A stretch of DNA of 64,000 nucleotides, taken from UHGV virus genome UHGV-0117634; one strand, written 5' to 3'. Below, in pieces: positions 9,059 to 39,336 of this stretch (positions are counted from its first letter, which is position 1; the number at the start of each line of letters is the position of its first letter). Below the pieces are notes generated by a model. That model was not told where the DNA came from, did no database searches, and worked only from the letters and a program-made list of their open reading frames with translations. The translations under genes were made by a program, and so were the position numbers. The stretch comes from a virus.

Positions 9059-9375
9059 ACATTTTCTCCTACAGTTCTAAATAGAACAAAACTTCTGTCA
9101 TGAACAATACTCGAAGATACTGCAAAACTATTCTCAAGTATATTTTTATTTGGATTGTAGAATCCTTCTTGGAACAAATCAAGTGCCTCTTGATGATTTT
9201 GTGGCAGACCTTTGATGTAAACCTTCAAAGTGACCGTTGTATAAATCTCAGAAGCTAACTCTGACTGTGCTGCTTGAAACAGTTCGTTGATAAACTTGTG
9301 ACCATCTTCAGGACGCTGAATGTTTTCCCAACGTTCTTCAATGATTACATTGACATTCATCTGTTTAATTTTCAT
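9040..9375 (-). CDS. hypothetical protein (111 aa)
   Basis: ORF-track ORF downstream of the NAMPT-family gene. Confidence 0.4.
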   Translation of the reverse strand: MKIKQMNVNVIIEERWENIQRPEDGHKFINELFQAAQSELASEIYTTVTLKVYIKGLPQNHQEALDLFQEGFYNPNKNILENSFAVSSSIVHDRSFVLFRTVGENVCKVIG

Positions 9376-9599
9376 AGTCTGTTAATTCCTTTGCAAGTTT
9401 TACGAAACTCTCTGCGAAGCTTTCTAATCTGACGTTTAGTAGGTTTTGTAGGGAATTTGTAATCATCCACAAAAACCTGCATATCATCTCTGTAGTCTTC
9501 TGCAAACCATAACTGCCAAGATGCTACACAATATCCACCAAAGAATCCAGTACTATCTGTATAAAATAAATCAGTGTTAAATCTCATAACATTCTCCAC
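9372..9599 (-). CDS. hypothetical protein (75 aa)
   Basis: ORF-track ORF; GGAG RBS; overlaps next gene start. Confidence 0.4.
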   Translation of the reverse strand: MENVMRFNTDLFYTDSTGFFGGYCVASWQLWFAEDYRDDMQVFVDDYKFPTKPTKRQIRKLRREFRKTCKGINRL

Positions 9600-9604
9600 A
9601 AATT

Positions 9605-9627
9605 AAAAAGGCTCCCGTAGGAGCCTC
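9605..9627 (-). terminator. rho-independent terminator after NAMPT-family gene
   Basis: Plus AAAAAGGCTCCCGTAGGAGCC; stem GGCTCC/GGAGCC, tetraloop, T-run on minus strand. Confidence 0.6.
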
Positions 9628-9640
9628 TTATCATACTATT

Positions 9641-11458
9641 TTACAGTTGCTTGTCAATAACTTTTCGTACATCACGAAGGTTAACGTAACCATATGGTTG
9701 TGAGTCACAGAAGACAAGCTTCAAAGCACACTGAGGGTTGTCAATGACACCTTCAAACTCTGCAAATCCTAAGCCATCTACAGCTTCCAGCTTATCACCA
9801 TCCCACATAGGAATGACACCACCAAAAGCAGATTTCTTAAGACCACTATCTGTTTTAGGGTCTTTAGCCAGCATGATTTCTTTACCATCCATCTGTGCAA
9901 GAGTTGCTTTAACAGCAAATGCAAAGGTATCGCGAGTCAAGTACTGATAAGTGTATGAACCTACACCAAACACTACGTTAGAACTTGCAAAACCCTTATC
10001 AGCAAGACGTGACAGGATATCATTAGCTCTTTCCAGAGTGATAGAATCACCGTAGATTAATCCAATGTGCTCATCCAGTACTTTGTACCCTTTGGAGTTA
10101 ACAGTGCCACCAAAGATGTTATACAGCGTGTGGATAGCCCCATCAATCTCTGCTGTCAGCATACGCTTCACAGTAAACTGTCCAGTTTTCTGAGCGGTAA
10201 TCAGGTTGATTGTATCAGCAGATTCAAAATCTTCCTTATCAACAACCATCTCATAACCTTCAGAGATTAGCCAAGCAGAGAACCCAAAGCCAATATCAGA
10301 CATTTCACAATTCAAGATTGTGTCATGCAGATGTGTATTGTTCGGTGCAAGCTCTTTCATGTGCTTGTAGAACATTGACTTAGCAGTTTCCCACTCAATG
10401 GCTTTGTAACCAGTAACAATGTGAACAGGGTCTCCAGAGTCTGGACGGATTACCAACTTACCATCACGATTCAGAATCACATTACGTAGCTCTGGTAAAA
10501 TCTGTGTAACAGTTCTCCAGAAGTTGTAAGTATCTGATACAACACTTGCAATACCAGTTGGGTAGACTTCTGTCAGAAGACGTTGGAAAGTTTCTACCTC
10601 ACCACGCCAACGCATTGCATCTAACAAGTTGTCAGACTGTAGCAGATGCCAATCACTTACTTCTTTTGCACAACTATTCCATGAGATGTTTGCACACATC
10701 ACAGAGTGTTCAGTTGCTGGTACAGAGTTCCCGATATCACTTACAGTCATAAACTGACCATATGCACGTTTAGCTGTGTATACAGCAGGGAAGCTGTCAG
10801 TACCTTTAAAACTTGTCAGGTGACCTACTGCGTTAAACGCATCATCTGTGAATCCAGACATACCACGCATTGCAAAGTCATGACACTGCCAAGGAAGATG
10901 GAAGTCGTTATCACAGGTCAAATCTGACCACTTCTTACAAATACGTTTGTAATGTAGTGCAATAGTTGCAATTGTACAAGCTTTCCAGATTTCAGCAGAG
11001 AAAGCATCTTCGAGATAACCAGCTACCCAATGGAAGCCCTCTACAGTGTTTTTGAATATAATCATCGGGACACGCATAGGGACAATTGTACCTTCCTCTA
11101 CAGAGTAGACTTCAACAGGCAGATAACCTAAGTCATGAAGTTCTTCCCAATGTTGGCGACCAATAGCATCTGCACCAAGAACACCATTCATGATTTCCAA
11201 GATTTCGTCAATGGCTTCTTTCTTATCGCGTTCAAAGAACGTTGCATTCCAGTGGTCTACCAGATAGTCTTTTACAAAACGCTGAATACCAAATGCTACA
11301 ACACCATCAATTTCTAATGGAGAGTTAAACCATTTGTCTCCACGAGGTGTTAAGTTCAGCATAAGATACTGAGTAGCATCTGGATACTGGTAGATATGAC
11401 CAGCTTTGTAAGCATCTGCGTTAAGTCCTGCTGGTACTGCATAGATTGATTTAGTCAT
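9641..11458 (-). CDS. nadV: nicotinamide phosphoribosyltransferase-family protein (NAMPT/NadV-like; candidate Namat of an NAD+ reconstitution pathway)
   Basis: Clear NAMPT motifs: DAYKAGHIYQYP, FAMRGMSGF...SFKGTDS, SVPATEHS, VVSDTYNFW, IRPDSGDP, IYGDS, FGVGSY...LTRD. Confidence 0.9.
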   Translation of the reverse strand: MTKSIYAVPAGLNADAYKAGHIYQYPDATQYLMLNLTPRGDKWFNSPLEIDGVVAFGIQRFVKDYLVDHWNATFFERDKKEAIDEILEIMNGVLGADAIGRQHWEELHDLGYLPVEVYSVEEGTIVPMRVPMIIFKNTVEGFHWVAGYLEDAFSAEIWKACTIATIALHYKRICKKWSDLTCDNDFHLPWQCHDFAMRGMSGFTDDAFNAVGHLTSFKGTDSFPAVYTAKRAYGQFMTVSDIGNSVPATEHSVMCANISWNSCAKEVSDWHLLQSDNLLDAMRWRGEVETFQRLLTEVYPTGIASVVSDTYNFWRTVTQILPELRNVILNRDGKLVIRPDSGDPVHIVTGYKAIEWETAKSMFYKHMKELAPNNTHLHDTILNCEMSDIGFGFSAWLISEGYEMVVDKEDFESADTINLITAQKTGQFTVKRMLTAEIDGAIHTLYNIFGGTVNSKGYKVLDEHIGLIYGDSITLERANDILSRLADKGFASSNVVFGVGSYTYQYLTRDTFAFAVKATLAQMDGKEIMLAKDPKTDSGLKKSAFGGVIPMWDGDKLEAVDGLGFAEFEGVIDNPQCALKLVFCDSQPYGYVNLRDVRKVIDKQL

Positions 11459-11478
11459 CTTTTTATCTCTCTCAAAGT

Positions 11479-11494
11479 GGGGCTTTTCAGCCCC
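11479..11494 (-). promoter_or_regulatory. second copy of GGGGCTTTTCAGCCCC hairpin (intergenic, between PRPP-synthetase-family and NAMPT-family genes)
   Basis: Identical 16-mer to the one in the rIIB promoter spacer; here no good -35/-10 flank it. Confidence 0.4.
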
Positions 11495-11502
11495 TAAAGT
11501 TT

Positions 11503-12402
11503 TTATTCAATATTTACTACAGTCACTTGTGAGAAGTGTGAAAGTCCACGCCATTTAGCACTTCCTAATGAATCTGTAGTGTAGATATGGTCAATACCGT
11601 TGTCAAGAAGATTTTCAACACCTTTAGAGAAAATCCCATGAGTGACATATAGTTCTACATGTTCTGCACCAGCTTCACGAAGATACTTTGCAGCCTCAAT
11701 GAAGGTACGACCACCGTCACAGATATCATCCAGAATCATGACAGTCTTACCTGTTAAGTCTACATCATCAAGGATTCGCATACCAGTTATTTCACCAGTT
11801 TTTAGGTTGCGTACCTTAGCCATTGTGATATATGGCTTTTCAACATCCTTAGCAGCTTCTTCTGTCTTCTTAGCTGCACCTGCATCTGGAGCCACTAAGT
11901 AATCAATTCGTGGGTCACTTGCAAAGTGTGATGCAACGGCTTTTTGTGGAACATTATAGAAGCACTTGAACAAATTTTCTGCTACGTTGCTGTGAACATC
12001 CAGAGCACATACAGAATCAAATTCCATAGCATTTACCAGATTGGCAAACACTTTCAATGCTGCTGCATCTCCTTTAAACATGTGTCGGTCATATCTTGCA
12101 TTTGGTAAGAAACCAAATAACACTGACTTCATTGTTGTTTGTTGAGGTATAAGGTTGTCAATTGCTTCTTTAGCCAAAGCTAATGCAAATAAGGTGTCTT
12201 TGTCATAACCTTGTACCGTGAAGATTACGTTTTCAATTTTTCCAGCAGCATGTTTAGCAAAATCTACTAAGTCTTCTGAAAAGTTACCACCAATTTCCCC
12301 TGAAGGGAACTGAATAATGTTGAAGGTCTCTTGGTGTGAACCTTTTGAATTTGAATTAAGCAGAACTTGAATAGTAGTTTCCATAGTATTTCTCTCAGTC
12401 AA
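11503..12402 (-). CDS. ribose-phosphate pyrophosphokinase (PRPP synthetase)-family protein (candidate Adps)
   Basis: PRTase-type binding loop VMILDDICDGGRTF and overall Prs-like layout; immediately upstream of the NAMPT-family gene. Confidence 0.8.
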   Translation of the reverse strand: MTERNTMETTIQVLLNSNSKGSHQETFNIIQFPSGEIGGNFSEDLVDFAKHAAGKIENVIFTVQGYDKDTLFALALAKEAIDNLIPQQTTMKSVLFGFLPNARYDRHMFKGDAAALKVFANLVNAMEFDSVCALDVHSNVAENLFKCFYNVPQKAVASHFASDPRIDYLVAPDAGAAKKTEEAAKDVEKPYITMAKVRNLKTGEITGMRILDDVDLTGKTVMILDDICDGGRTFIEAAKYLREAGAEHVELYVTHGIFSKGVENLLDNGIDHIYTTDSLGSAKWRGLSHFSQVTVVNIE

Positions 12403-12421: not shown

Positions 12422-12871
12422 TTATTCCCAAATAATTTTCTTTCTTTTTAATTTAATGATGTTCTTTTTACAATACTCAACTGCCTCATCCATTGTATCA
12501 AACATCATCTCACCAATAAAGTACTTAACATTTGGGTTTTGCTCTTGTATTATTTGGATTTCTGTAGTTTTTACTTGGTCTTTTACACCAGTAACCAGTC
12601 TTGCTAGTCGTGGTTCATTTTCCATAAATGGTTTGCTTAACTGGTTGATATAAAGAACTCCACCATTTTTGCTACCATGCTTGACAGTCACGAGAACCCC
12701 AACTTTACGCAACGCTGATAAGTAATACCTTGAATTAGCTATCGGCATTTTCTTAAGATAATCACAATTACTTCTTAGAGCTTTCACCGCTTCATTGGAA
12801 TCAAATTCCTTATCAGTCCCGAACTTTTCGTGTAGTATCTCAACAAGCGTTACATAAAATGAGCTAATCAT
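12422..12871 (-). CDS. hypothetical protein, tandem paralog B (149 aa)
   Basis: Same length as and about 45% identical to 12898..13347 (shared EIL..KFGT..FDSNEA...YL.ALR..GVL.TV and C-terminal YFI...MF.T..EAVE.CKK.IIK.KR.KIIWE). Confidence 0.6.
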   Translation of the reverse strand: MISSFYVTLVEILHEKFGTDKEFDSNEAVKALRSNCDYLKKMPIANSRYYLSALRKVGVLVTVKHGSKNGGVLYINQLSKPFMENEPRLARLVTGVKDQVKTTEIQIIQEQNPNVKYFIGEMMFDTMDEAVEYCKKNIIKLKRKKIIWE

Positions 12872-12897: not shown

Positions 12898-13347
12898 TTA
12901 TTCCCAAATAATCTTTGCACGTTTAATCTTAATGATGTGTTTTTTGCAATGCTCAACAGCCTCTTCTAAGGTATTAAACATCGCACTTTCAATAAAGTAC
13001 CTTACGTCAGGGTCTGTGTCAACAATTTTGTTCTCATCTTTATTTTTAGGTTCTTCATGTGATTCATCCAATAATGGTGATAGCTGGATGTGCTTTTCCA
13101 TGAAGGATTTATTTAACTGGTTAATGCTCAGTCTACCTTTACTTTTTATCTGGCCTACAGTCATTAGTACACCAGTTTGTCGTAATGCTGTCAAGTAACC
13201 ACGAGCATTATTAATTGATTGACCTCTAATGTATAGGCTTTTCTTTCGAAGTACATCAATAGCCTCATTAGAATCAAATGTCCCCTCTGTTCCAAACTCT
13301 TTATACAAAATTTCTATTACATGTTTTTGTAAATTACAAAAAATCAT
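12898..13347 (-). CDS. hypothetical protein, tandem paralog A (149 aa)
   Basis: Paralog of 12422..12871; conserved GTAACTTTTGACTGAGAGAAA leader upstream. Confidence 0.6.
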   Translation of the reverse strand: MIFCNLQKHVIEILYKEFGTEGTFDSNEAIDVLRKKSLYIRGQSINNARGYLTALRQTGVLMTVGQIKSKGRLSINQLNKSFMEKHIQLSPLLDESHEEPKNKDENKIVDTDPDVRYFIESAMFNTLEEAVEHCKKHIIKIKRAKIIWE

Positions 13348-13358: not shown

Positions 13359-13652
13359 TCAGTCAAAAGTTACAAATGTTACAGCCATAGCTGTTTTACA
13401 TTTCTTTGGGTCTACAGTGTGATAAATAACTAAACAGTTACCTGTTCCATCTGGTACTGGTTTTGTCCAAGTACGTTCAATATTTGGCTCTCCAAATTCT
13501 TTATAGAATCCGTTGGAGTAGTGGTCAATCATCTCAATAGCAAGTGCATCTGGGACGTGACCACGTATCATATACATCTCACTACCGTTTCCAGCTTCAC
13601 TAATAAGTTCTTTGATATCCCATTGTTCTCTAGACATGATAAGTTGCCTCAT
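13359..13652 (-). CDS. hypothetical protein (97 aa)
   Basis: ORF-track ORF. Confidence 0.4.
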   Translation of the reverse strand: MRQLIMSREQWDIKELISEAGNGSEMYMIRGHVPDALAIEMIDHYSNGFYKEFGEPNIERTWTKPVPDGTGNCLVIYHTVDPKKCKTAMAVTFVTFD

Positions 13653-14145
13653 AAACTTCCCTAAACTTCAACAAGAGAGATATTGCCAGAACTGCATAGC
13701 TCCTGTCAAGCATTGGTGGCATATTATTTTTAAGATATGCTTTCTGTTCTTCCCAAGTCATCTTAGGAGTCTCAGGAAGTTTCTCACCTTGCTTCTGATT
13801 ATCTTCTTGTGTCTGGATAAACCAGTTTGAGCAATGGTGCTCTCCACCTTTTGTCACAGGCTTATGGTGGCCTAATGTGAAAGCTTTCTTTCCAGAATAT
13901 CTACAAAGCTTATTAAGGGTTGCAATAGTGTTCTTGACAACGCAGTATTCATAGAGGTTGTCAATAGTGTAATGAGGGTAGTACTGGAACAAGGCACTAT
14001 CACGGAACTTACCACGATTCCAAAGCACCATGTGATTAGAATTTGAAGGGTCATACTTATGTGACTCGATGAACTCTTGACGCTCATCAAAATCAAGACG
14101 AAGAACAGACATTGCAGCAGCACGTTTCATATTTGAATGGTACAT
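13630..14145 (-). CDS. hypothetical protein with possible HNH-like nuclease motif
   Basis: LGHHKPVTKGGEHHCSNW resembles the HH..P..GG....N HNH core; weak. Confidence 0.35.
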   Translation of the reverse strand: MYHSNMKRAAAMSVLRLDFDERQEFIESHKYDPSNSNHMVLWNRGKFRDSALFQYYPHYTIDNLYEYCVVKNTIATLNKLCRYSGKKAFTLGHHKPVTKGGEHHCSNWFIQTQEDNQKQGEKLPETPKMTWEEQKAYLKNNMPPMLDRSYAVLAISLLLKFREVYEATYHV

Positions 14146-29371: not shown

Positions 29372-30112
29372 TTACAGATTGATAATGGTTTTAAGTTTAC
29401 TCTCTAATTCTTCCATCGTTCCATTATTCTGGATAATATCACGAGAGAAGTTAGTGGAAATACCACGTTCAGAGCTATGGGAAGCCACCTGAATAGCATC
29501 TTTTCTTGTAATCTCAATTATCTGGCTATCATAGCTTTGAAGGAACTCAGCTTCAATATCAAACCTTAAATCACATATCAGTGCAATACCTATGTGACTT
29601 TTCTTAACACAATCACCATAGAATTTTTCAATACGTTCTGCTAAGTCTGTAATCCAGAAACGCTCTCCAAGAATTTTACGGATAACCTCACTACCCCAGA
29701 CTTGCTGTATTTGTCTTGAGGAAATCATATATTCATTTTTCAAACCAAGCTTTGTAAGCAATGTTGGCTTACCAACTTTCTTTAACTCTTTGATAAGTCT
29801 GTCTGTGATTTCCCCACAAAGTTTTGCATCATCTTGTATACCCTTGCTTTTCATGTTTATATTGAAAGCCCATGCCACACGAGAGTTAAGGTTGTCAAAA
29901 TCTAAGCTAAACTTTTTAGGCGTTTCTTTCGTATCACCATATAGGTCGTGCCAGTTTAAGTCAAAGATAAACCCAGCAGTTGCTTTTAAGTTATCGGCAA
30001 ACGCAAACACTTTAACAGTGTATCCAGCCTCATTCAATAGATTTTTTACAATGCTGCAAGACGTATCCTTTCCAGAACGAGCTTTTCCAGTAAATGCAAT
30101 AACACTTTTCAT
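29372..30112 (-). CDS. deoxynucleoside monophosphate kinase (T4 gp1-like)
   Basis: MKSVIAFTGKARSGKDT P-loop and C-terminal GTMEELESKLKTIINL match T4 dNMP kinase ends; start trimmed to internal Met. Confidence 0.75.
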   Translation of the reverse strand: MKSVIAFTGKARSGKDTSCSIVKNLLNEAGYTVKVFAFADNLKATAGFIFDLNWHDLYGDTKETPKKFSLDFDNLNSRVAWAFNINMKSKGIQDDAKLCGEITDRLIKELKKVGKPTLLTKLGLKNEYMISSRQIQQVWGSEVIRKILGERFWITDLAERIEKFYGDCVKKSHIGIALICDLRFDIEAEFLQSYDSQIIEITRKDAIQVASHSSERGISTNFSRDIIQNNGTMEELESKLKTIINL

Positions 30113-30169
30113 ATAAGTCACTCCATAATAAAAAGCCCCCAATTAAGGAGGCTGAAGGGTATGCCACAA

Positions 30170-30964
30170 TTATTGTAGTTGAGAACCAGTGAGTTCACGC
30201 TCAGACATTGCTTCTAGCTGCTGAACAAACTCTTCACCGAAGTTGATTGCAATTTTGGTGCTAAGAACTGCTGCACCAGTTTGACTAAATACTTCTCCGA
30301 GTGCTGCTGTATGAGCACCTTGTGACATGCTCTCTACAAAGCTTGGGTCAGACTCTAACATTTTTGACACTTCAAGTAAAGCATGAATACCCATGATACT
30401 AAAGATGGCATTTAACATTGAAGTTACTTTAACCTGAATAGGGTCTAGAGAGAGACCATTAGTAATCTCTGACAGCTTATTCATTGTCTCATCAGCATAC
30501 TGAATTGCCTTGTCAGATACTTCATCAAAGCCCCAATCCAGTTTTACATAACGTGGTGACTTATCATTCATACGCTTCTCTAGTGATGCCATTACAGCAG
30601 CAACTGGCGTACAAATACCTTTCAGAAGGTCTTCATCACTCATGTTATCAAGCTCTTTAATACCCTGCTCAGTAATCTGGATGTATCCACCTGAATACAT
30701 TTCATCAAAGATATATGTTGCAAAAGCATCAACACCAATGAGGATGGTTTTCAGAGCATCAGTCTTATTAGATAGCAGGTATTCAACCTCTTTACGGAAA
30801 TCTTCGTCATTCTCTACAGCGTTTTTTACAACACGCAGAGATTCAGGGATAAATTTTCCTGACAGTGAGTTGCTACGCATAATGATAGCAAGAGTCTCAA
30901 CAGTGTTCAGCATGAATGCTTCGTCAATACCTTTTTCTTCCAGAATCTCATTTACAGTTTTCAT
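30170..30964 (-). CDS. hypothetical protein (264 aa)
   Basis: ORF-track ORF. Confidence 0.45.
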   Translation of the reverse strand: MKTVNEILEEKGIDEAFMLNTVETLAIIMRSNSLSGKFIPESLRVVKNAVENDEDFRKEVEYLLSNKTDALKTILIGVDAFATYIFDEMYSGGYIQITEQGIKELDNMSDEDLLKGICTPVAAVMASLEKRMNDKSPRYVKLDWGFDEVSDKAIQYADETMNKLSEITNGLSLDPIQVKVTSMLNAIFSIMGIHALLEVSKMLESDPSFVESMSQGAHTAALGEVFSQTGAAVLSTKIAINFGEEFVQQLEAMSERELTGSQLQ

Positions 30965-31388
30965 CTTTAATCTCTCTCATTTTGTTAATAGTAAGTCGTG
31001 ATAATCTTAAGCTTTCTTGTGAAGAGAAGTCAAGTCCTTTTTCAGACCGTGGGAAGTAATTTCTGTCCCACGTATTCTCTGCATCCTGAAGCAGTTGGGA
31101 TAGACTATCTAAGTCCGTTCCATTTTGCAACTTATTTTTTAAGGTATCTATCAAAAAGATTGTGTCTTTCGCTTTACGTCTTTCTGAAGATATCTCTTTC
31201 ATGTGCTCAAATACCGAGCACTTTAAACCTTCGTCGTATCCACTTGATAGTTCTATCTCATGCTGAACATCAACCATTCGACGATGTTGATAAGCATACT
31301 CCTTCTGAGCCTCAATGTAAAGTGCTTCAACTCTTTCTAAAGCTTGGACAAGGTTATTGATATCTGGGTGAACGTACATCCTCTGCAT
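30948..31388 (-). CDS. hypothetical protein (146 aa)
   Basis: First gene of the leftward block next to the divergent control region. Confidence 0.45.
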   Translation of the reverse strand: MQRMYVHPDINNLVQALERVEALYIEAQKEYAYQHRRMVDVQHEIELSSGYDEGLKCSVFEHMKEISSERRKAKDTIFLIDTLKNKLQNGTDLDSLSQLLQDAENTWDRNYFPRSEKGLDFSSQESLRLSRLTINKMREIKDENCK

Positions 31389-31648
31389 AATTGCCTCTGT
31401 TAAGTATCTATAAAGATTTTAATCTCTTATCTTTATGTATGTTATACATATAACTTTAAAGCTTTTTTAAAAGCTATTAAAAATCTTTTGAGACTTTTAA
31501 AGAAACTGTATAGTTAATCTATAAAGGGAGTCTATTAAGATAAAACCCACTTCGAAAAGACTAACACCTTGTCAAGCAGTTTGTCAACTTGCTTTTTGCA
31601 GAAAATTGCTGTAGGGTATTATCCAGAATGATTTGAGAGGGAGTAAAA
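31389..31648. promoter_or_regulatory. divergent AT-rich control region with palindromes (AGCTTTTTTAAAAGCT; TATGTATgttATACATA) and TTGTCAA direct repeats
   Basis: 260-bp gene-free gap between oppositely oriented blocks; a 16-bp perfect palindrome at ~31466..31481; candidate operators and promoters, exact -35/-10 not resolved. Confidence 0.45.
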
Positions 31649-34348
31649 ATGGACAATGTAGATTTCGAAAAATTACATTTGGTTGGTGATACAGAAACTG
31701 ATGGGTTGCTCCTTGAGTTTACAAAAGCACACGTAATGGCTTTCGCAGACTATAAAGATGACAGTGATGAACCTGCTGTGTGGGTTTTCACTGATGAGCC
31801 TATTCTTGGTCACAAGTATACAAAATACATCAAAGGTGGTCTGCGTGAAGGTGTTGAGTTTGCACTGAAAGCTAAACGTCTTTGTATCCACAATGGTCTT
31901 GGTTATGACTGGTGGGTGTTTAATCACATTGCACCTGACCTGTGGAACTTTGAGAATCCTAAGTGTAAGCCTTGGAGTGACTTCTTTCAGGATTCACTTA
32001 TCCAATCTCGCGTACAGTGGATGGATAGAACTACACCAAAAGGTTACAAAGGTGCTCATGGTTTGGCTGCATGGGGTGCTCGTGTTGGTGTTCGTAAACC
32101 AGAGATTGAAGAGTGGGGTGTCTGGAATGCAGAGATTCTTACTCGTGTTGTAGAAGATATTAAGATTAACGCCAAAACTAAACGTGCTCTTGACAATGAG
32201 TATCTCAAGCTTAAGAAGTGTGGCGTGGATACTTATGAAACCTACATGCGAGCTAAAGAAACATCTTTCTGGATGAGTCAGCAAGCTATCAACGGTTGGA
32301 AAGCTGATGTAGAGCTTATGCAGTTCCACGTTAAAGAGCTTGACAAGTTAACTAATGAGTTGGCTGCTGAGGTTGAACCACACCTTCCACCAACTATTAA
32401 GACAAAAGGTAAAGTCACAGGTGAAGAATTTGCCAAGTCTTGGAACGAGTATGTAGATACATTTGGTCACGTTGACGGCTTAAAAAGGATTACCAAGTAC
32501 CCTAAGACAAAGTATCGTGAACAGATGCGTGAAGGTGAGTTGAAGCAGTACCCTATTAAGCCATATGGTAAGCCAACTACAAAGATTTTTAATGTTGAGA
32601 AACGCAACTGCTACACTCCAACTAACACGGTCACAAAAGAAGAGTACCCTGAAGGTTTTGTAGCAATGAAAGATGCTCGTGCAGTTTGTAATGAACTGAA
32701 TGAGAAGATTGGCAAGAAGTGTAAAGATTGGAAGCCAGTTAAGACTGTGAAAACTGTGAAGTACTACAATGTTCACGTTGTTAATCACTTTGAGTTAGAG
32801 TCTAGTCGCTACACTGGTTTGATTGATGCACCATTTACACCAATTGAGTTTGAAGTTTCACGAATGACTCAGGTAGCTGTGGTGAAGGATTACTTAAAAT
32901 CTGTTGGTTGGATTCCTGATGATTGGAACTATAAAAAAGATTCTGATGGTCGTCCTATCAAGGTTTGCAGATTCAAAGACAACAAAAAGATGATTCGCAA
33001 ACATCCTAAGTGGGATGAGATGGTTGAGCGTTGTGGGTTGAACTATATTGAGCATGAAGGTGTCTATTACATCGAGCATAACTGGTCTGTTAAGAAGTAC
33101 ACAGATGTGCTTGAACCTTGCTTGATTAGGACTTCACCAAAGCTTACAGAGTCTTCTTATGATACAATCGAAGGTGAGCTTGGACAGAAGATTGCGAAGT
33201 ACTATACTTTGATGCACCGACGCAGGACTATTGAGAACTCAAAGGATGATGAGAAAGGTTGGCTGAACCAGATTCGTCCAGATGGTCGTTTGAGTGCAGG
33301 TGCAATGGTGTTTGGTACTTCTACTGGACGTATGACTCAGTATGGTATTGTAAACGTACCTTCTGGTGCTGCTGTTTACGGTGAGCCAATGAGGGCAGTG
33401 TGGATTTGTGAAGAGGGAACCAACGTAGTATCTGTTGATATGAACTCTGCACAGCTTGTACTACTCTGTAACTTCATGGGTGATAAAGACTTCACCAAAG
33501 CGGTAACAGAGGGTAAAGAAGAGATTGAGTTTGTTCGTCAAGAGGATGGAAGATACTACTGCAAACACTTTGACCAGTATCTGAATCCAGAGATTGACAA
33601 GTATCTGCGTTATGACTCTGAAAACGATTTGTACGTAGTTTACTCAGGGACTGATGCTCACACTCTGAACAGTATCTACTTCAGCCTTAATGATGAGCAA
33701 GATATCTTGACTTGTCGTGCTACTCAGGATGAGAATCTTCTTCATGAGATTAGCAAGGGACGTAAGAAAGCTAAGAATGGTATCTATGCCCTGTTGTTCG
33801 GTGCAGGTGATGAGAAGTTTGCTAAAACAATTAAAGCAGCAACTACTCAGGAAGGTGCATTGACTAAGCAGACTTACTTTGTGCGTTTACCGAAGATTAA
33901 GAAACTGTTAGACAACTTGGAAGCTGATTTCAAAGCAACTAAGAAAGCACTTGAAGAGGTGTTTGGTAAGACTGCTGCAATCTCTAAAGGTGGTTTTGTG
34001 AAGGTTGCTGGGGCTTGGCTGTGGTGTAAGTCTCCACACAAACTCTTGAACTATTTGTTAATGGGTTCAGAAGCACAAGTTCAGAATGAAGCAATCAACC
34101 TTGCATGTCGTCGTATGATTGATGAGGGTTTGATGAAGTTGAATGGTCGTAAACCAGCTATTGGTGCTCGCTTACTCTGTGCTTACCACGATGAAACAAG
34201 CTGGGAATGTCCAGAGAGCATGACAGCAGATGTGAAAGCAGTAACTGACTGGTATTATGGTCAAGCATCTAAGAACCTTGGACTAAGAAAAGAGACACTA
34301 GTCACAGGTGCAGGGAAAGTTGGTAAATCGTGGCTTGAAGTCCACTAA
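31649..34348 (+). CDS. DNA polymerase, family A, with 3'-5' exonuclease domain
   Basis: Exo I motif DTETDGLL; Pol A motif B RKKAKNGIYALLFG and motif C YHDE; 899 aa. Confidence 0.9.
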   Translation: MDNVDFEKLHLVGDTETDGLLLEFTKAHVMAFADYKDDSDEPAVWVFTDEPILGHKYTKYIKGGLREGVEFALKAKRLCIHNGLGYDWWVFNHIAPDLWNFENPKCKPWSDFFQDSLIQSRVQWMDRTTPKGYKGAHGLAAWGARVGVRKPEIEEWGVWNAEILTRVVEDIKINAKTKRALDNEYLKLKKCGVDTYETYMRAKETSFWMSQQAINGWKADVELMQFHVKELDKLTNELAAEVEPHLPPTIKTKGKVTGEEFAKSWNEYVDTFGHVDGLKRITKYPKTKYREQMREGELKQYPIKPYGKPTTKIFNVEKRNCYTPTNTVTKEEYPEGFVAMKDARAVCNELNEKIGKKCKDWKPVKTVKTVKYYNVHVVNHFELESSRYTGLIDAPFTPIEFEVSRMTQVAVVKDYLKSVGWIPDDWNYKKDSDGRPIKVCRFKDNKKMIRKHPKWDEMVERCGLNYIEHEGVYYIEHNWSVKKYTDVLEPCLIRTSPKLTESSYDTIEGELGQKIAKYYTLMHRRRTIENSKDDEKGWLNQIRPDGRLSAGAMVFGTSTGRMTQYGIVNVPSGAAVYGEPMRAVWICEEGTNVVSVDMNSAQLVLLCNFMGDKDFTKAVTEGKEEIEFVRQEDGRYYCKHFDQYLNPEIDKYLRYDSENDLYVVYSGTDAHTLNSIYFSLNDEQDILTCRATQDENLLHEISKGRKKAKNGIYALLFGAGDEKFAKTIKAATTQEGALTKQTYFVRLPKIKKLLDNLEADFKATKKALEEVFGKTAAISKGGFVKVAGAWLWCKSPHKLLNYLLMGSEAQVQNEAINLACRRMIDEGLMKLNGRKPAIGARLLCAYHDETSWECPESMTADVKAVTDWYYGQASKNLGLRKETLVTGAGKVGKSWLEVH

Positions 34349-34409
34349 TAGTGTTGACAAGGTGCTCATGGAAGAGTACCTTATACTATATATTATATAG
34401 GAGACTTGT

Positions 34410-34610
34410 ATGACTATTTCAGAAATTGAAGTTCAACTGCAATGTGCTGGATATTCTCAAAGTGAGATTGAGGCTATGTGCATCATCATTTGCAGTAGCC
34501 ATAAGCACCTCAAGCTTTCTAATGAAAATCTTCGCAAGGTTGATATTTTTATTGCTGGAGGTAAGATTATCAAGGATAAGACAGGATACCTTAAAGGTGA
34601 ACGTCTATGA
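34410..34610 (+). CDS. hypothetical protein (66 aa)
   Basis: ORF-track ORF with RBS. Confidence 0.4.
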   Translation: MTISEIEVQLQCAGYSQSEIEAMCIIICSSHKHLKLSNENLRKVDIFIAGGKIIKDKTGYLKGERL

Positions 34611-34816
34611 GCCATCGTGGAAGAACTCATCTCGCTATGATGCAAGGTGCTTCAAAAGAGACTATCAAGAATCGGAAGAAAACTCTTTTTGACAGAATGA
34701 ATAGACTCATTGATAATGCGAGCCTACCTAACTCTGAAAAGGTTTTCTTGAAAGGAAATCTGAAGAGTATTGCACAGGAACTTATTGACATTGAATTTTG
34801 GAGACACCAAAAATGA
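34607..34816 (+). CDS. hypothetical protein (69 aa)
   Basis: ATGA overlap with upstream gene. Confidence 0.4.
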   Translation: MSHRGRTHLAMMQGASKETIKNRKKTLFDRMNRLIDNASLPNSEKVFLKGNLKSIAQELIDIEFWRHQK

Positions 34817-35070
34817 GCAGCAAAGAAGAAGAAGGTTTAGCAATAATCCGTCACAAAAACCCTCAGATATCATTCGTTTCTGAAGCATGGTGTCGTGGTT
34901 TAGACTATCAATGGTACTTAGATTTGTGTAAAATGAAATCTGTAGAGCCAGTAAAAGAAGGGACTTTCAAGGAACTTTACAAGACCGTCCAAGAAGGTTA
35001 CGAAGAAAACTGTGAAAAAGGAAATCAACTATGTGGAAAACAATCATTGCACTTGGAGTGCTTTTTCTAA
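34813..35070 (+). CDS. hypothetical protein (~85 aa)
   Basis: Start moved to second Met (GGAGA RBS, ATGA overlap with the upstream stop). Confidence 0.4.
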   Translation: MSSKEEEGLAIIRHKNPQISFVSEAWCRGLDYQWYLDLCKMKSVEPVKEGTFKELYKTVQEGYEENCEKGNQLCGKQSLHLECFF

Positions 35071-35276
35071 CTGGCTGTAACCCAAGCTACGATAACAAAG
35101 AAGGGAGCTACACACTACCTCCAGAGATGAGAGATTGCTCAATCTATCGGCTGAATGGTTCCATGATTAATAGGGACTTGGTAGTTGTTCGTTGTCCAAA
35201 TTCACAGACTACAACTACCTCTAAAGTTGGTAGAAGTAGTACCCAAAGTGTAACAGTTATCAACGAAGGATATTAA
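35031..35276 (+). CDS. small lipoprotein (candidate superinfection-exclusion protein)
   Basis: Signal peptide plus lipobox (VLFLTG-C), ~60-aa mature part with two further Cys. Confidence 0.45.
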   Translation: MWKTIIALGVLFLTGCNPSYDNKEGSYTLPPEMRDCSIYRLNGSMINRDLVVVRCPNSQTTTTSKVGRSSTQSVTVINEGY

Positions 35277-35277
35277 G

Positions 35278-35484
35278 ATGCAAGTACTGGTAAACTTTAT
35301 TCACCTATATGACGTTATACACTCAACTACTACAGTTGCCCAACGTAACCCTATCGTACCACGAGAAGGTGAGTGGGTAAGGATTGATGGTTGGACTTAC
35401 ACTGTAGAAAATGTCATTCACAAGTTTGATGTTTGTGGAGACACTCAAGTTATCGACGTAGAAATTGGTGGTAAGAGAAAATGA
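35278..35484 (+). CDS. hypothetical protein (68 aa)
   Basis: ORF-track ORF; overlaps ligase start. Confidence 0.4.
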   Translation: MQVLVNFIHLYDVIHSTTTVAQRNPIVPREGEWVRIDGWTYTVENVIHKFDVCGDTQVIDVEIGGKRK

Positions 35485-36581
35485 CAATTCTGTACAAACA
35501 AAACAAAGATGGTTCTTTCAACGTTTGGTCATGTGTTGCTGTAGGTGATAAAGTTGTTACAACCTACGGTAAAGAAAATGGCAAGATGATGTTCGAAGAG
35601 TACACAGCAGAACCAAAGAACATTGGTAAGAAGAATGAGCGTAATGCTGAACAGCAAGCTCTCTTTGAAGTTGCTGCTAAGTACAAGAAGCAAGTTGACC
35701 GTAAAGGATACGCTTACACAAAATCTGAAGCAGAGAATGTTGAGAAGGTTGGTGTACAGCTTGCTCAAGATGCTTCCAAGATAAGTCATAAGAAATATTT
35801 GAAGTTCCCTGCTGACGCTCAACCAAAACTTGATGGTGTTCGTTGCAGGATTTCAAGGAATACTGATACTGTAAGCTTCACAGCTTATTCTCGTGAGAAT
35901 ACGGTATATAGCATACCTGAAGAGTTAATTCCTGATGTTCTTCTCATGTTGAAGCTTCACAAAGATGTTAAAGACTTCGATGGTGAGATTTATGCTCATG
36001 GTTGGGACTTAGAAGATATTGTTTCGATGATTAAGAATGCTGACAATCCAGACCGTCACCTTCTTAAATTCTACTGGTATGATATCTGTGACAAGACCAA
36101 ATCTTGGCCTGAGCGTCGTGAAGTTATTGACAATTCGCCAATCGTTGAACTCGGTGATGCTTGCAGGGTTGTACCTGTTCAGACAATACGTGTCAACTCT
36201 TGGGAAGAGTTTGATACTGCTCATGACAATTGGGTTAAGCTTAAGTTTGAAGGGGCAATGTATCGCTCAATCTCACCAGATTCGTTCTATGAGTGTAGTC
36301 ACCGTTCATACTTCCTGATTAAGCATAAGAAGATGCACACACAGGAATTTAAAGTAACTGGTGTAAAGACTGATAAGCGTGGTCATGGCAAGTTCGTTGT
36401 AGAAACACTTCCTAATGTCTTTGTAGATGTTTCATGGAAGACTACACACGAGAAGAAACAGTATCTTGCTGAACATCCTGAAGAGTTTATCGGGAAACCT
36501 TTGACTGTTCAGTTCCAGAAGATGACTCGTAAGGGTTCTTTACAGTTCCCTGTTGGGCTAGTAATTCGAGACTATGAATAG
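35481..36581 (+). CDS. ATP-dependent DNA ligase (T7-like)
   Basis: Adenylation motif I KLDGVR; size 366 aa. Confidence 0.85.
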   Translation: MTILYKQNKDGSFNVWSCVAVGDKVVTTYGKENGKMMFEEYTAEPKNIGKKNERNAEQQALFEVAAKYKKQVDRKGYAYTKSEAENVEKVGVQLAQDASKISHKKYLKFPADAQPKLDGVRCRISRNTDTVSFTAYSRENTVYSIPEELIPDVLLMLKLHKDVKDFDGEIYAHGWDLEDIVSMIKNADNPDRHLLKFYWYDICDKTKSWPERREVIDNSPIVELGDACRVVPVQTIRVNSWEEFDTAHDNWVKLKFEGAMYRSISPDSFYECSHRSYFLIKHKKMHTQEFKVTGVKTDKRGHGKFVVETLPNVFVDVSWKTTHEKKQYLAEHPEEFIGKPLTVQFQKMTRKGSLQFPVGLVIRDYE

Positions 36582-36589
36582 AGGCCAGT

Positions 36590-36739
36590 ATGTTTAGTGC
36601 AATTGTTCTGTTTATATTTGTTGTTTTATCATTGGCTTACTTCACAAGTAAACTCTTAAGTATAACATACAAAGCAGCCTTAGCCTTTACTCTGTTGTCA
36701 TTTGTAGTAAATGCAGTAGTCAGAGAATTTTTAGTATAA
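36590..36739 (+). CDS. small hydrophobic protein (~49 aa, not in ORF track)
   Basis: MFSAIVLFIFVVLSLAYFTSKLLSITYKAALAFTLLSFVVNAVVREFLV; GAGG RBS. Confidence 0.35.
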   Translation: MFSAIVLFIFVVLSLAYFTSKLLSITYKAALAFTLLSFVVNAVVREFLV

Positions 36740-36744
36740 AGTTG

Positions 36745-36772
36745 TTGACATGAAGAATCTGACGGGTATACT
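36745..36772 (+). promoter_or_regulatory. sigma70-like promoter (TTGACA-N16-TATACT)
   Basis: Near-consensus hexamers ~50 nt upstream of 36823 ORF; inverted repeat TCTGACGGG...CCCGTCAGA brackets the -10 and leader. Confidence 0.55.
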
Positions 36773-36822
36773 GCCTATATAGAAAATTATATATTAACCC
36801 GTCAGAAATCTCGGAGGTAGTT

Positions 36823-37203
36823 ATGAAAAAGTTACTTGTTGGTGTCATTGCTCTTGGTATGAGTTTTAGTGCAGTGGCTATGAAGATGCCTGAAGCAAAC
36901 TTTAATGGTGTTGCTTTAGAGTCTTGTAAGATTGTACAGAAAATTGCATCAAATGCTGGAGAGTTAACTAAACCGTTATCTGCTCCAACTGTTCAAGAAA
37001 TGACTGATAAGATGGTTGACTACAATTACCATTTTATGGGTGATTACTATGACAGATTAGCAGATGAGATGGTCACCCAGAATGTCGATGTTCTTGACAG
37101 CAAAGGTATCGAAACTGTAGAAGATGTGAAAGATAATTTTATGCGTGAGTCTTTCAAAGGTGTCCAATATTTTATTGAAAATCGTAACTGCATAGGTTTA
37201 TAA
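36823..37203 (+). CDS. secreted/periplasmic protein (signal peptide), function unknown
   Basis: MKKLLVGVIALGMSFSAVA signal peptide; GGAGG RBS. Confidence 0.5.
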   Translation: MKKLLVGVIALGMSFSAVAMKMPEANFNGVALESCKIVQKIASNAGELTKPLSAPTVQEMTDKMVDYNYHFMGDYYDRLADEMVTQNVDVLDSKGIETVEDVKDNFMRESFKGVQYFIENRNCIGL

Positions 37204-37205
37204 TC

Positions 37206-37409
37206 ATGAAGAAGAACATCTGTAGAACAGACTATGGTGAAGTGGTCGATGATGACGGAGTAGTTATTTACAGAGTTTGGGCTAATGATTTTTCAACCCT
37301 TGTAGAGTCTTTAGATAACTACATCAACGGGACTCGTGAAAACGTCAGAGCAACTAATCTTGATTCGTTAATAGACACTTCTCGAAAGCGGAGAAAGAAA
37401 GATGAATGA
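37206..37409 (+). CDS. hypothetical protein (67 aa)
   Basis: ORF-track ORF. Confidence 0.4.
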   Translation: MKKNICRTDYGEVVDDDGVVIYRVWANDFSTLVESLDNYINGTRENVRATNLDSLIDTSRKRRKKDE

Positions 37410-37701
37410 AGTCTTCGACCCTTATGCACCTCAAGATTCTTGGGAGGCTGATAGAGAGGCTGAAATGGAGAGTTATGTCTGTCCAATGGATATAGAAGAG
37501 ATGAAAGACTTTGTATCTTTCAGATTCTCTAAAGAGATTGAGAAGCTAAAACTTTCTCAGGCTCAAGTAGCAACTGTTTGTGAAATCTCACAGAGTCGTG
37601 TATCAAATATCATTAACGACCCTCAAAAGATTTCTTTAGAGTACATGCTTAATGCTTGTACAAAACTTGGTGTAAATTTTAACTTAAGGCTGGCAGATTA
37701 A
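37402..37701 (+). CDS. helix-turn-helix (XRE/Cro-like) DNA-binding protein with acidic N-terminus
   Basis: LSQAQVATVCEISQSRVSNI resembles XRE-family HTH. Confidence 0.45.
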   Translation: MNEVFDPYAPQDSWEADREAEMESYVCPMDIEEMKDFVSFRFSKEIEKLKLSQAQVATVCEISQSRVSNIINDPQKISLEYMLNACTKLGVNFNLRLAD

Positions 37702-37702
37702 T

Positions 37703-38062
37703 ATGAAACGTGAAAATGCAATCTTTAACGATAACTTTGCAATTGGCTTCTATGGTAAACCAACTCCAGCAGAGAAGCTTTATGGTAATGCAATTCTGGA
37801 GACCTTGAAAGAGGTTTACACAACTGGTGGTATGAAGCATACTGAAGCAAACCGTGTAAGAGGTTATATGGCAATTGGCTCTGCAATCTCTAACATCAAA
37901 CTTGAAACCACCAGTGCCAAAAAGGTACGAGACCACTTCATCAAAGAGTTGTCAGAGAATCTAGATGGTGTTGATGTTAAGGCTGTCTGGTTAGATGTTG
38001 ATGGTCACAACTACACAACTTTTGTGTTTAAAAATGAGGATATCAAATGTCTCTTCCCTTAA
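37703..38062 (+). CDS. hypothetical protein (119 aa)
   Basis: ORF-track ORF. Confidence 0.4.
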   Translation: MKRENAIFNDNFAIGFYGKPTPAEKLYGNAILETLKEVYTTGGMKHTEANRVRGYMAIGSAISNIKLETTSAKKVRDHFIKELSENLDGVDVKAVWLDVDGHNYTTFVFKNEDIKCLFP

Positions 38063-38550
38063 AACTCGATTTATACTTTGGGTACAGTGTATTGCAAGGC
38101 AGCATACTATCACTACCAAAGTCAGATTATCGTTGTGATTTAGGTTCTGTGAAACGTGCATCACACTTTAACAACAACATCTTAGGCTTGCAGACACTTC
38201 ACAGGTGGCTTGAGGAAGATGGACGGTTGAATGAGTATCTTCACCAACTCGAACTAGCCAAAGAAGAAGGTCATATGGGCTATGAAATGCTTCCACGTCT
38301 TTACAAACCTGTAAGCCCAAATGAGATTCGTTGGAATGAGCAAGCTGTTGAGAGCTATAATAAATTTAATATAACTATTTGCTCCAGAGCTTGGAAGGAG
38401 TATATGAAACTCCGTGAAATCATCATACAGACTATTGGAAAGCGTGTAGCAAAAGGTCTTGCTTATGATGAAAAGGTTGACTGGAATACACAAAAGTGTA
38501 TAAAATTCTTCAAGTACGATAATGACAAGGATACTTTTGTAGAGGTTTAA
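38047..38550 (+). CDS. hypothetical protein (167 aa)
   Basis: ORF-track ORF. Confidence 0.4.
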   Translation: MSLPLKLDLYFGYSVLQGSILSLPKSDYRCDLGSVKRASHFNNNILGLQTLHRWLEEDGRLNEYLHQLELAKEEGHMGYEMLPRLYKPVSPNEIRWNEQAVESYNKFNITICSRAWKEYMKLREIIIQTIGKRVAKGLAYDEKVDWNTQKCIKFFKYDNDKDTFVEV

Positions 38551-38551
38551 C

Positions 38552-39067: not shown

Positions 39068-39336
39068 AAATCTTAAGCGGAGTATCACAGTGTTACATGA
39101 ATAATGGTGAGCCAGTTAAATGCTGCCATTGTGGAGGTGAGAACTTCCAAGGTGAAGTTTCAGAGATTGTCTCTGGCAATATCGCTGAAGAGTACACCCG
39201 TTGCTGTGGATGTGGAAAGATTTTATCTTTTTGGGCTTATGGAAGTTATGAACCACAGCCTCACCTTATTTACCATCCGAACAGGATTGTGAAGCGTGTT
39301 CTAAACTGGTTCATTATCAAAGGATTTACAAAATGA
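39064..39336 (+). CDS. small Cys-rich protein (zinc-binding?)
   Basis: CCHCGG and CCGCGK cysteine clusters. Confidence 0.4.
   Translation: MKILSGVSQCYMNNGEPVKCCHCGGENFQGEVSEIVSGNIAEEYTRCCGCGKILSFWAYGSYEPQPHLIYHPNRIVKRVLNWFIIKGFTK

Follow-up and report, generated by a model that had tools for sequence, protein, structure and literature searches.

The adjacent adps and namat genes described here very probably form the NARP1 counter-defence operon of a Mooglevirus-like phage of the Ounavirinae, a reading to which we assign a probability of about 0.93. They lie in UHGV virus genome UHGV-0117634, of which a stretch of 64,000 nucleotides (the window) was analysed, and the window phage is itself a Mooglevirus-like member of the Ounavirinae. 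A preliminary description of this DNA had put forward the pair as a candidate NARP1 system (Adps plus Namat), and this was borne out by orthology and synteny with the operon of Bas63 (Escherichia phage JohannRWettstein, MZ501086; bas63_0079/0080), whose products gp79 and gp80 are 79 and 76% identical to the window proteins over their full lengths. The system is already known and not new, near-identical orthologues being present in the published Adps/Namat tables. For the window proteins, both catalytic activities and the counter-defence effect are predicted from orthology.

In the proposed mechanism, a host NADase defence (type I Thoeris, DSR1/2, SIR2-HerA, SEFIR, or similar) would split NAD+ into ADP-ribose and nicotinamide. 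Adps would then produce ADPR-PP by an ATP-dependent pyrophosphorylation of ADP-ribose at its terminal ribose, and Namat, by Nampt-type chemistry, would convert ADPR-PP and nicotinamide directly to NAD+. An adenine-stacking clamp, made up of a K42-W43 loop together with Tyr502 and Tyr506, would favour ADPR-PP over PRPP. The two genes would be co-transcribed from the minus strand, with the unit closing at the terminator at 9606-9629. The defences that the preliminary description had named (Thoeris, DSR, SIR2, and SEFIR) match those in the abstract of the source paper (Osterman 2024, bioRxiv 10.1101/2024.02.11.579819).

The genes and the RNA elements of the locus are as follows.

11503..12384, minus strand: adps, Prs-family, encoding a putative ADP-ribose pyrophosphokinase of 293 aa (ORF, Pfam/NCBIfam models, Bas63 orthology).
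9641..11458, minus strand: namat, Nampt-family, encoding a putative nicotinamide ADP-ribose transferase of 605 aa (ORF, PHROG/Pfam, Bas63 orthology, PDB and fold matches).
11479..11494, minus strand: GC hairpin between adps and namat (spacer of 44 nt), GGGGCU-GAAA-AGCCCC, -12.8 kcal/mol, z = -3.6; kept in Bas63 and HP1.
9600..9629, minus strand: intrinsic terminator 3' of namat (stem plus U-tract, 9606-9629), AAGAGGCUCC-UACG-GGAGCCUUUU followed by U; -16.6 kcal/mol, z = -3.7.

By ORF calling, both genes are intact and on the minus strand, with the start of namat 44 nt past the stop of adps. Their homologies were far above chance. The longest Prs-like ORF (299 aa) matched PHROG 619, "ribose-phosphate pyrophosphokinase," with E = 2e-98, and Pfam Pribosyl_synth and Pribosyltran; the 605-aa protein matched PHROG 448, "nicotinamide phosphoribosyl transferase," with E = 6e-198, and Pfam NAPRTase and NAMPT_N. 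The earlier claim of a Prs-like gene with a NAMPT homolog directly downstream of it was therefore confirmed. The extent first given for the pair, 9641-12402, does contain both ORFs, but its upper boundary is the TTG at 12402 to which the 299-aa ORF reaches, and this is most likely not the start of adps. Translation more plausibly begins at the ATG at 12384, because a GAGAGA Shine-Dalgarno-like motif resembling that of namat precedes this codon and because the resulting 293 aa equal the length of the annotated orthologues of Bas63 and HP1.

On the sense strand, the sequence after the spacer hairpin is ACUUUGAG, with no U-tract, and in a terminator scan it was terminator-like on the opposite strand only. 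As a sense-strand U-tract is missing, it is not considered a canonical terminator. Downstream of namat, a 10-bp stem and UUUUU, identical in Bas63 and HP1, form a canonical intrinsic terminator; the terminator noted earlier for this locus was thus upheld for the NAMPT-like gene but not for the space between the two genes. A sigma-70 promoter was sought just upstream of adps, where the 17 promoter-like sites counted in the region were in line with a shuffle expectation of 15.8. Probably, adps-namat is part of a longer minus-strand transcription unit.

The gene order is nrdG ... adps-namat ... rIIA-rIIB, as in Bas63. Uncharacterised small genes flank the pair, and directly upstream of adps lies a tandem two-gene paralogous cassette (149 aa), which is of sporadic occurrence, is always found at that site, and is absent from Bas63.

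NARP1 was defined by deleting the operon formed by genes 79-80 of Bas63 (Osterman 2024, bioRxiv 10.1101/2024.02.11.579819), a deletion that makes the phage sensitive to SIR2-HerA. ADPR-PP was formed in vivo only with the Bas63 operon, and rescue did not depend on host pncC/nadR, the operon being functional in a pncC nadR double-deletion host (Osterman 2024). Bas63, Fado, and the operon of SPbetaL1 are the cases in which rescue from NAD+-depleting defences has been demonstrated (Osterman 2024). With Bas63, the window shares the subfamily, the position of the operon between the nrdG block and rIIA/rIIB, a spacer of 44-45 nt with the same hairpin, the same terminator, an Adps of 293 aa, a Namat with both of the insertions described below, and a K-W clamp loop with a GSYTYQY(L/M)TRD helix. 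The two differ in lineage (Felixounavirus for Bas63, Mooglevirus-like for the window), in the upstream cassette, and in the length of Namat, which is 12 aa longer in the window because insertion 1 is longer.

Other relatives are more similar still in sequence: Moogle Namat is 98% identical to window Namat, and orthologues of window Adps reach 92% identity by tblastn. Proteins of Moogle, Michonne, phiSUSP1, and FelixO1 have been tabulated as Adps or "Adps-associated" Namat, and the Moogle, Michonne, and phiSUSP1 entries in the Prs/Adps table carry "Namat within 10 genes: Yes," as holds for a Namat homologue in 97% of the Adps clade (Osterman 2024).

The alternative that survives best, although we rate it as improbable, is classical salvage, whereby Prs turns ribose-5-phosphate into PRPP, NadV combines PRPP with nicotinamide to give NMN, and host NadR or PncC/NadD/NadE complete the synthesis of NAD+. 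Such a pathway would raise NAD+/nucleotide supply in infection, with no specific link to ADP-ribose. These are the names carried by database annotations and family models, and the preliminary description had been unable to separate Adps/Namat from classical Prs/NadV by eye. Alignments, the clamp motif, and scores against Prs models now favour NARP1, and the orthologous Bas63 operon, which works in a pncC nadR host and yields ADPR-PP in vivo, also argues against salvage. The Adps residues that bear on this question are listed first.

11815..11817, minus strand: Lys190 of Adps, within the KVRN sequence of the flexible catalytic loop, at the alignment position of SPbetaL1 Adps K162.
11704..11730, minus strand: DDICDGGRT of Adps, which aligns with the ribose-5-phosphate/PRPP loop of Prs (DDMIDTGGT in E. 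coli Prs).

Window Adps passed the generic model TIGR01251 (126 bits, cut-off 113), which favours salvage; on the same model, the control sequences Bas63 Adps and SPbetaL1 Adps scored 138 and 106, respectively. TIGR01251 was the only Prs model passed. Window Adps fell below every Prs equivalog cut-off (95.7 on NF002320, against a cut-off of 297), whereas the E. coli Prs control scored 423-533 on the best-matching Prs models, the value of 533 being that for NF002320. Across every Prs model, the score of window Adps was 3-4-fold under that of E. coli Prs, contrary to what salvage would lead one to expect. Identity to E. coli Prs (b1207) was 27% by BLAST local alignment and 25% in the multiple alignment; for SPbetaL1 Adps, the corresponding values were 31 and 33%.

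The Prs catalytic scaffold is kept in window Adps (R97, D99, R100, H131, and the DD motif), a point for salvage. Lys190 corresponds to the SPbetaL1 Adps residue whose replacement (K162A) gives an inactive enzyme (Osterman 2024, bioRxiv 10.1101/2024.02.11.579819); relative to E. coli K194, the alignment register is off by one. Inspection of the substrate loops, suggested earlier as a check, revealed DDICDGGRT in place of the Prs sequence DDMIDTGGT, as well as the clamp in Namat that is considered below. The DGGRT of the window, where housekeeping Prs has DTGGT, speaks against salvage, and DDICDGG(R/A/M/G)T was found repeatedly among catalogued phage Adps sequences. In SPbetaL1 Adps, the equivalent loop differs again, reading DDLSSFGGT.

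On these grounds, the Prs-like gene appears to belong to the Adps clade and not to housekeeping Prs. That clade, which is phage-restricted and apart from housekeeping Prs, was set by phylogeny (Osterman 2024), and placement in it here is by identity and model scores. No published sequence or structural rule splits Adps from Prs, so the gene is assigned as adps from its orthology, its clade behaviour, and the adjacent namat. The purified enzymes studied so far are those of SPbetaL1, at just 31-45% identity, Bas63 Adps having purified poorly; SPbetaL1 Adps gave no product with ribose-5-phosphate as substrate, and SPbetaL1 Namat offered both donors formed NAD+ alone (Osterman 2024), both of which count against salvage. 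In vitro, Namat does make NMN from PRPP (PMC12774641; Osterman 2024), and some flux along that route is possible.

For Namat, the residues and motifs considered were the following.

9929..9961, minus strand: selectivity-clamp helix (SCH), GSYTYQYLTRD, aa 500-510; motif defined in PMC12774641, with Tyr502 and Tyr506 at the adenine-stacking positions.
11309..11347, minus strand: selectivity-clamp loop (SCL), PRGDKWFNSPLEI, aa 38-50; K42-W43 arrangement as in Bas63 Namat.
10439..10447, minus strand: catalytic Arg338-Pro-Asp340, equivalent to SPbetaL1 R306 and D308.

The top PDB sequence matches of window Namat were the Namat crystal structures 9W5W/9W5X (420 bits), followed at lower scores by HdNadV (336 bits), Xcc Nampt (171), and human NAMPT (about 140). 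An AF2 model, from an alignment built without an SPbetaL1 row, had a pLDDT of 91.8, and its closest folds were again 9W5X/9W5W, with a TM-score of 0.95 on the target and 36-37% identity in the structural alignment, making SPbetaL1 Namat the best structural match. The Nampt-type core is complete in window Namat (D15, Y17, F195, R198, D221, H251, R338, D340, G470, and D471; for reference, D13, Y15, F189, R192, D215, the catalytic His, R306, D308, G360, and D361 in SPbetaL1 numbering) and is invariant over 31 aligned homologues. Changing R306 of SPbetaL1 Namat to Gly or Ala abolished activity (PMC12774641; Osterman 2024). In the window protein, each of the 21 positions that contact ligand in the SPbetaL1 Namat-NAD+ structure is either unchanged or carries a conservative substitution.

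The adenine clamp carried by window Namat, which true Nampts are without, is a further point against salvage. At the position of the clamp helix, HdNadV has GAQTYQRNTRD, Xcc Nampt has GGALLQKVDRD, and the phage Nampts of KP27 and K491 have GGGLLQ..., the clamp motif being absent from each. The adenine-stacking residue of the SCL has been described as Arg at loop position 3 or as the residue following a Lys/Tyr at position 3, and in the published AF3 model of Bas63 Namat, stacking was given to the fourth SCL residue. At alignment level, the window sequence GDKW (K42-W43) compares with SDKW in Bas63. The model NF006629, a "nicotinate phosphoribosyltransferase" equivalog, was also passed by window Namat (463, against a cut-off of 405) and was weighed as support for a classical Nampt. 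It was rejected as such, as bona fide SPbetaL1 Namat scores higher (594); a model that accepts bona fide Namat too is uninformative on Namat versus Nampt.

In sum of likeness, the window operon and that of SPbetaL1 share the two-gene order, the catalytic residues, and the adenine-clamp motif; they differ in sequence (31-33% identity for Adps, 41-48% for Namat), in the clamp loop (Arg40 in SPbetaL1, Lys42-Trp43 in the window), and in the insertions, neither of which is present in the 491-aa SPbetaL1 Namat. Housekeeping E. coli Prs and the true Nampt/NadV enzymes (H. ducreyi NadV, 9KE8; Xanthomonas Nampt, 7YQO; and human NAMPT) have folds, core catalytic residues, and Pfam families in common with the window proteins. 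They are set apart from them by the low identity and much higher Prs model scores of E. coli Prs and, in NadV/Nampt, by an SCH whose third and seventh residues are not aromatic and by the lack of an extended clamp loop.

An extended form of NARP1, coupled to a Macro-domain Adpp (an ADPR-1''-phosphate phosphatase; NARP1-AP) or to a RyR cADPR glycosidase (RyDEP), would in addition be able to overcome aRES or to draw on Thoeris signals. A Macro-domain gene occurs in 15% of NARP1 operons, and the small flanking genes of the window, including the sporadic upstream cassette, are uncharacterised, but we regard this form as very improbable here. No Macro (PF01661, PF14519, or PF20016) or RyR domain was matched in 10 flanking ORFs by hmmscan (E ≤ 0.1), a search less sensitive than the HHpred used for the published Macro criterion, and so no Macro gene was seen within two genes of the pair, the position that defines NARP1-AP. 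The spacer is only 44 nt and therefore holds no third gene within the operon. The lack of a flanking Macro/RyR accessory gene in this search points to a plain two-gene NARP1. A NARP2-type arrangement, in which a PRPP-preferring Nampt would act with a phage NMN adenylyltransferase (cf. Vibrio phage KVP40), the Prs-like enzyme being needed for PRPP supply only, has next to no probability. It draws on the same protein family, about 20% of phage Namat homologues fall in this second clade, and the Nampts of T4-like and KVP40-like phages, such as Klebsiella phage KP27 and Vibrio phage K491, are likewise phage Nampt-family proteins implicated against NAD+ depletion. But the KP27 and K491 Nampts are 29-32% identical to window Namat and have GGGLLQ..(T/D)RD in place of the clamp, and members of the clade by definition lack Adps (none lies nearby in the KP27/K491 regions examined, whereas it is adjacent to namat in the window). 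No Nmnat, NadR, or Nudix gene was found in the 10 ORFs that flank the pair, nor in the portions of the Bas63/HP1 annotation examined.

With NARP1 as the preferred reading, the window phage has an apparently functional copy of a counter-defence pathway that is already in the literature. The assignment is useful for annotation because the public records of its relatives still read "ribose-phosphate pyrophosphokinase" and "nicotinate/nicotinamide phosphoribosyltransferase," and it may aid host-range prediction on strains with SIR2, TIR, SEFIR, or DSR-type NADases. As the operon is without an Adpp phosphatase, the phage is predicted to be still sensitive to aRES-type defence. The mechanism, distribution, and structural determinants of NARP1 are already published, and no new question is raised by this copy.

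The NAMPT homolog had been described as about 120 aa longer than canonical enzymes. It is indeed longer, the figure being 114 aa relative to SPbetaL1 Namat (605 and 491 aa), and the difference is made up of two insertions and small loop differences.

10610..10687, minus strand: Namat insertion 1, aa 258-283 (about 26 aa); predicted helical, with no equivalent in SPbetaL1 Namat or in the human and Xcc Nampts.
10163..10405, minus strand: Namat insertion 2, aa 352-432 (about 80 aa); predicted small alpha/beta subdomain, with pLDDT >90 in the full-length model.

At E ≤ 10, a Pfam hmmscan matched nothing in Namat aa 351-440 or around insertion 1, and a 16-sequence profile of insertion 2 returned only chance matches against all PDB sequences (E = 0.33 and 0.99). 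In the literature examined, no discussion of either insertion was found. ADPR-PP is labile, which is the premise of one idea for their role, namely docking of Adps and channelling of ADPR-PP. That the insertions add a function of this kind, or one in allosteric control or in evasion of host counter-measures, or else that the 149-aa cassette is an anti-defence module coupled to NARP1, we consider doubtful. Modelled alone from its single sequence by AF2, insertion 2 gave a poor model (pLDDT 64.8); it is common to Bas63 and many Namats of Gram-negative phages.

The interval 9641-12402 is occupied by two long minus-strand ORFs:

11503-12402, minus strand, upstream Prs-like ORF (299 aa from TTG)
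9641-11458, minus strand, downstream NAMPT-like ORF (605 aa)

The upstream product matched Pfam Pribosyl_synth and Pribosyltran and PHROG 619 ('ribose-phosphate pyrophosphokinase', E=2e-98); the downstream product matched NAPRTase and NAMPT_N and PHROG 448 ('nicotinamide phosphoribosyl transferase', E=6e-198). Because these matches lie far above chance, the Prs-family and NAMPT-family gene pair recognized in the preliminary description is real. Translation of the Prs-like gene most probably begins at the ATG at 12384, giving 293 aa, the length annotated in relatives; a GAGAGA motif lies 5' of this codon, and a similar one precedes the downstream gene.

The pair had been proposed to be NARP1, which rebuilds NAD+ from ADP-ribose and nicotinamide by means of Adps and Namat, and this reading is borne out by orthology, synteny, residue conservation and fold shared with the characterized systems of phage Bas63 and SPbetaL1. 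NARP1 was defined in Escherichia phage JohannRWettstein (Bas63, MZ501086) through deletion of genes 79-80, which left the phage sensitive to SIR2-HerA; ADPR-PP was seen only with the operon present, and host pncC and nadR were dispensable for rescue (bioRxiv 10.1101/2024.02.11.579819). Bas63 is a Felixounavirus and shares its subfamily with the window. Window Adps is 79% identical to Bas63 gp79 without gaps (293 aa each), and window Namat is 76% identical to gp80 over its full length. The gene neighborhood is also common to both, running nrdD/nrdG, small ORFs, adps, namat, three small ORFs, rIIA and rIIB. In supplementary tables of the same study, proteins of Moogle, Michonne, phiSUSP1 and FelixO1 are entered as homologues of Prs/Adps that have a Namat no more than ten genes away, and their Namats as 'Adps-associated' (bioRxiv 10.1101/2024.02.11.579819); the Moogle Namat is 98% identical to that of the window.

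By analogy with in vivo data on Bas63 and with in vitro and structural data on SPbetaL1, a host NADase would yield ADP-ribose and nicotinamide, Adps would convert ADP-ribose and ATP to ADPR-PP, and Namat would combine nicotinamide with ADPR-PP to give NAD+; the same analogy predicts the phenotype. The probability that this is the mechanism of the window pair is put at about 0.93.

Classical Prs/NadV salvage could not be separated from NARP1 by eye, and alignment to characterized proteins places both genes on the NARP1 side. There is no published residue rule separating Adps from housekeeping Prs, and the Adps evidence is comparative. Beyond its likeness to Bas63 Adps, the window protein is 40% identical to a Klebsiella chromosomal Adps-like protein adjoining a Namat, 31-33% to the biochemically characterized SPbetaL1 Adps, and only 25-27% to E. 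coli Prs. On NCBIfam Prs models it fell below every equivalog cut-off and scored 126 bits on the generic TIGR01251, near Bas63 Adps (138) and SPbetaL1 Adps (106), with E. coli Prs at 423 (533 on NF002320). K190 aligns with the essential K162, and the 5-phosphate-binding loop, DDMIDTGGT in Prs, reads DDICDGGRT, a type of variant repeated among many catalogued Adps sequences.

For Namat versus Nampt, a two-part sequence-structure criterion has been published, one part being a variable loop that adds one further stacking residue (NAR 2026, PMC12774641). Window Namat carries the clamp motif GSYTYQYLTRD at aa 500-510, and its clamp loop, PRGDKWF, has the K-W arrangement described for Bas63. The same-position motif differs in H. 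ducreyi NadV (GAQTYQRNTRD), Xanthomonas Nampt (GGALLQKVDRD) and the phage Nampts of KP27 and K491 (GGGLLQ...). Each of the 21 residues that contact NAM or NAD+ in the structure of SPbetaL1 Namat is retained or conservatively substituted in the window protein, including R338/D340 (SPbetaL1 R306/D308) and the catalytic His251. Sequence scores were 420 bits against Namat 9W5W/9W5X, 336 against HdNadV, 171 against Xcc Nampt and ~140 against human NAMPT. An AlphaFold2 model built from a 30-sequence alignment (pLDDT 91.8, pTM 0.90) was likewise nearest to 9W5X/9W5W (TM 0.95 on target), followed by HdNadV and mammalian NAMPT. The sole result favoring classical salvage was the NCBIfam 'equivalog' NF006629, which window Namat passed with 463 bits (cut-off 405); since a bona fide Namat scores higher still (594), this model is uninformative. 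Classical salvage is very improbable.

Namat had been noted as ~120 aa longer than canonical enzymes; it is indeed longer, by 114 aa relative to SPbetaL1 Namat. The excess comprises insertion 1 (aa 258-283, predicted helical), insertion 2 (aa 352-432, predicted to form a small alpha/beta subdomain, pLDDT above 90) and a slightly longer clamp loop. Both insertions are present in Bas63 Namat (593 aa), and variable-length versions occur in Namats of many phages of Gram-negative hosts, so the length is a lineage trait of the characterized protein and no hint of a different enzyme. Homologues from Bacillus, Staphylococcus and enterobacterial chromosomes (~495 aa) are without them. Searches with the insertions found no family match or solved-structure similarity, and they go undiscussed in the structure paper (PMC12774641).

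Two hairpins were found at the operon:

9606-9629, canonical intrinsic terminator 3' of namat (-16.6 kcal/mol, z=-3.7)
11479-11494, conserved GC hairpin in the 44-nt adps-namat spacer, no sense-strand U-tract

Lacking that tract, the spacer hairpin is terminator-like only on the opposite strand; the terminator described earlier thus belongs to the pair and not to the first gene alone. Both elements are kept in Bas63 and Citrobacter phage HP1, and the layout fits the published two-gene operon. Promoter-like matches were no commoner than in shuffled sequence.

Later work described NARP1-AP operons with a Macro-domain ADPR-1''-phosphate phosphatase, which counters aRES, and NARP1 operons linked to RyR-domain cADPR glycosidases. 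Among the ten ORFs flanking the pair no Macro, RyR or Nmnat family match was found, and the spacer is too short for another gene. Such an extended NARP1 is accordingly most unlikely, as is NARP2, a PRPP-preferring Nampt with an Nmnat. The window pair is a plain two-gene NARP1, predicted to be unable to rescue phage from aRES. The system is already known, its mechanism, structural basis and distribution (859 phage genomes, 4.3% of the set; bioRxiv 10.1101/2024.02.11.579819) being published and near-identical orthologues appearing in the original catalogue. The finding is of value as a correct re-annotation, and leaves over only the uncharacterized insertions in Namat and a two-gene cassette that occurs sporadically beside the operon.

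Neighboring minus-strand ORFs include:

12422-12871 and 12898-13347, minus strand, tandem 149-aa paralogues directly upstream of adps
13630-14145, minus strand, 171-aa ORF (PHROG 3500, unknown function)
9372-9599, minus strand, 75-aa ORF just past the namat terminator (DUF7279, E=1e-18)

The paralogues are 48% identical to each other and belong to PHROG 29478 (unknown function), with no Pfam match; their N-terminal halves look like candidate winged-helix domains. Absent from HP1 and Bas63, they are confined to 16 phage records, all from two genera of Ounavirinae, and are always paired; in each of four records checked (Mordin, KMM2, Pr103Blw and the window) they share one position, right upstream of adps. 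The 171-aa ORF, also upstream of NARP1 in HP1 and Bas63, is weakly similar to HNH endonuclease PHROGs (E=2e-5, 4e-4). The HP1 counterpart of the 75-aa ORF is a 71-aa protein whose 'DNA polymerase' label looks like a mis-annotation. In Citrobacter phages Moogle and Mijalis, Escherichia phage phiSUSP1 and Salmonella phage S.Kent 1-2-1, ~470 extra bases, missing from the window, split the adps-namat match; where annotated, they are labelled an HNH homing endonuclease, which in Moogle would, from the gene numbers, fall after namat (gene 5) and before adps (gene 7). Mobile or accessory genes would thus seem to settle preferentially at the operon borders.

Over the 2.76-kb interval, identity is 94.5% to Citrobacter phage vB_CbrM_HP1 (Ounavirinae, Mooglevirus) and 90-94% to Moogle, Mijalis, Michonne, Mordin, phiSUSP1 and many Shigella phages. 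As the first 25 kb reach at best 95% identity to any record, the window represents a new isolate of a well-sampled genus. GC skew turns from negative to positive at ~31 kb and reverts at ~41 kb, which suggests a plus-strand gene block (~30000-41000) within an otherwise minus-strand window, matching the divergent replication-gene block of Bas63.

Chromosomal proteins of ~496 aa in Klebsiella, Cronobacter, Phytobacter, Kosakonia and Erwinia billingiae share 43-45% identity with window Namat, and the clamp motif, as GS[YF]TYQYNTRD, is present in the representatives aligned (E. billingiae, Klebsiella michiganensis, Cronobacter malonaticus). In K. michiganensis (contig L010, 4211-7491) the Namat-like gene lies 3' of a Prs-like gene whose product is 40% identical to window Adps, with a divergently transcribed NrtR-type regulator (NUDIX + WHD_NrtR) upstream and the core genes crp, prkB, yheS, kefB and slyD flanking the locus. 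NrtR is an ADP-ribose-responsive repressor. Given the clamp motif, the Adps-like neighbor and NrtR, enterobacterial operons annotated 'prs-nadV' may be a bacterial NARP1 induced by ADPR. Non-prophage copies were mentioned in the original study (bioRxiv 10.1101/2024.02.11.579819), and there is a report of bacterial NARP1 in Paenibacillus (PMC12774641).
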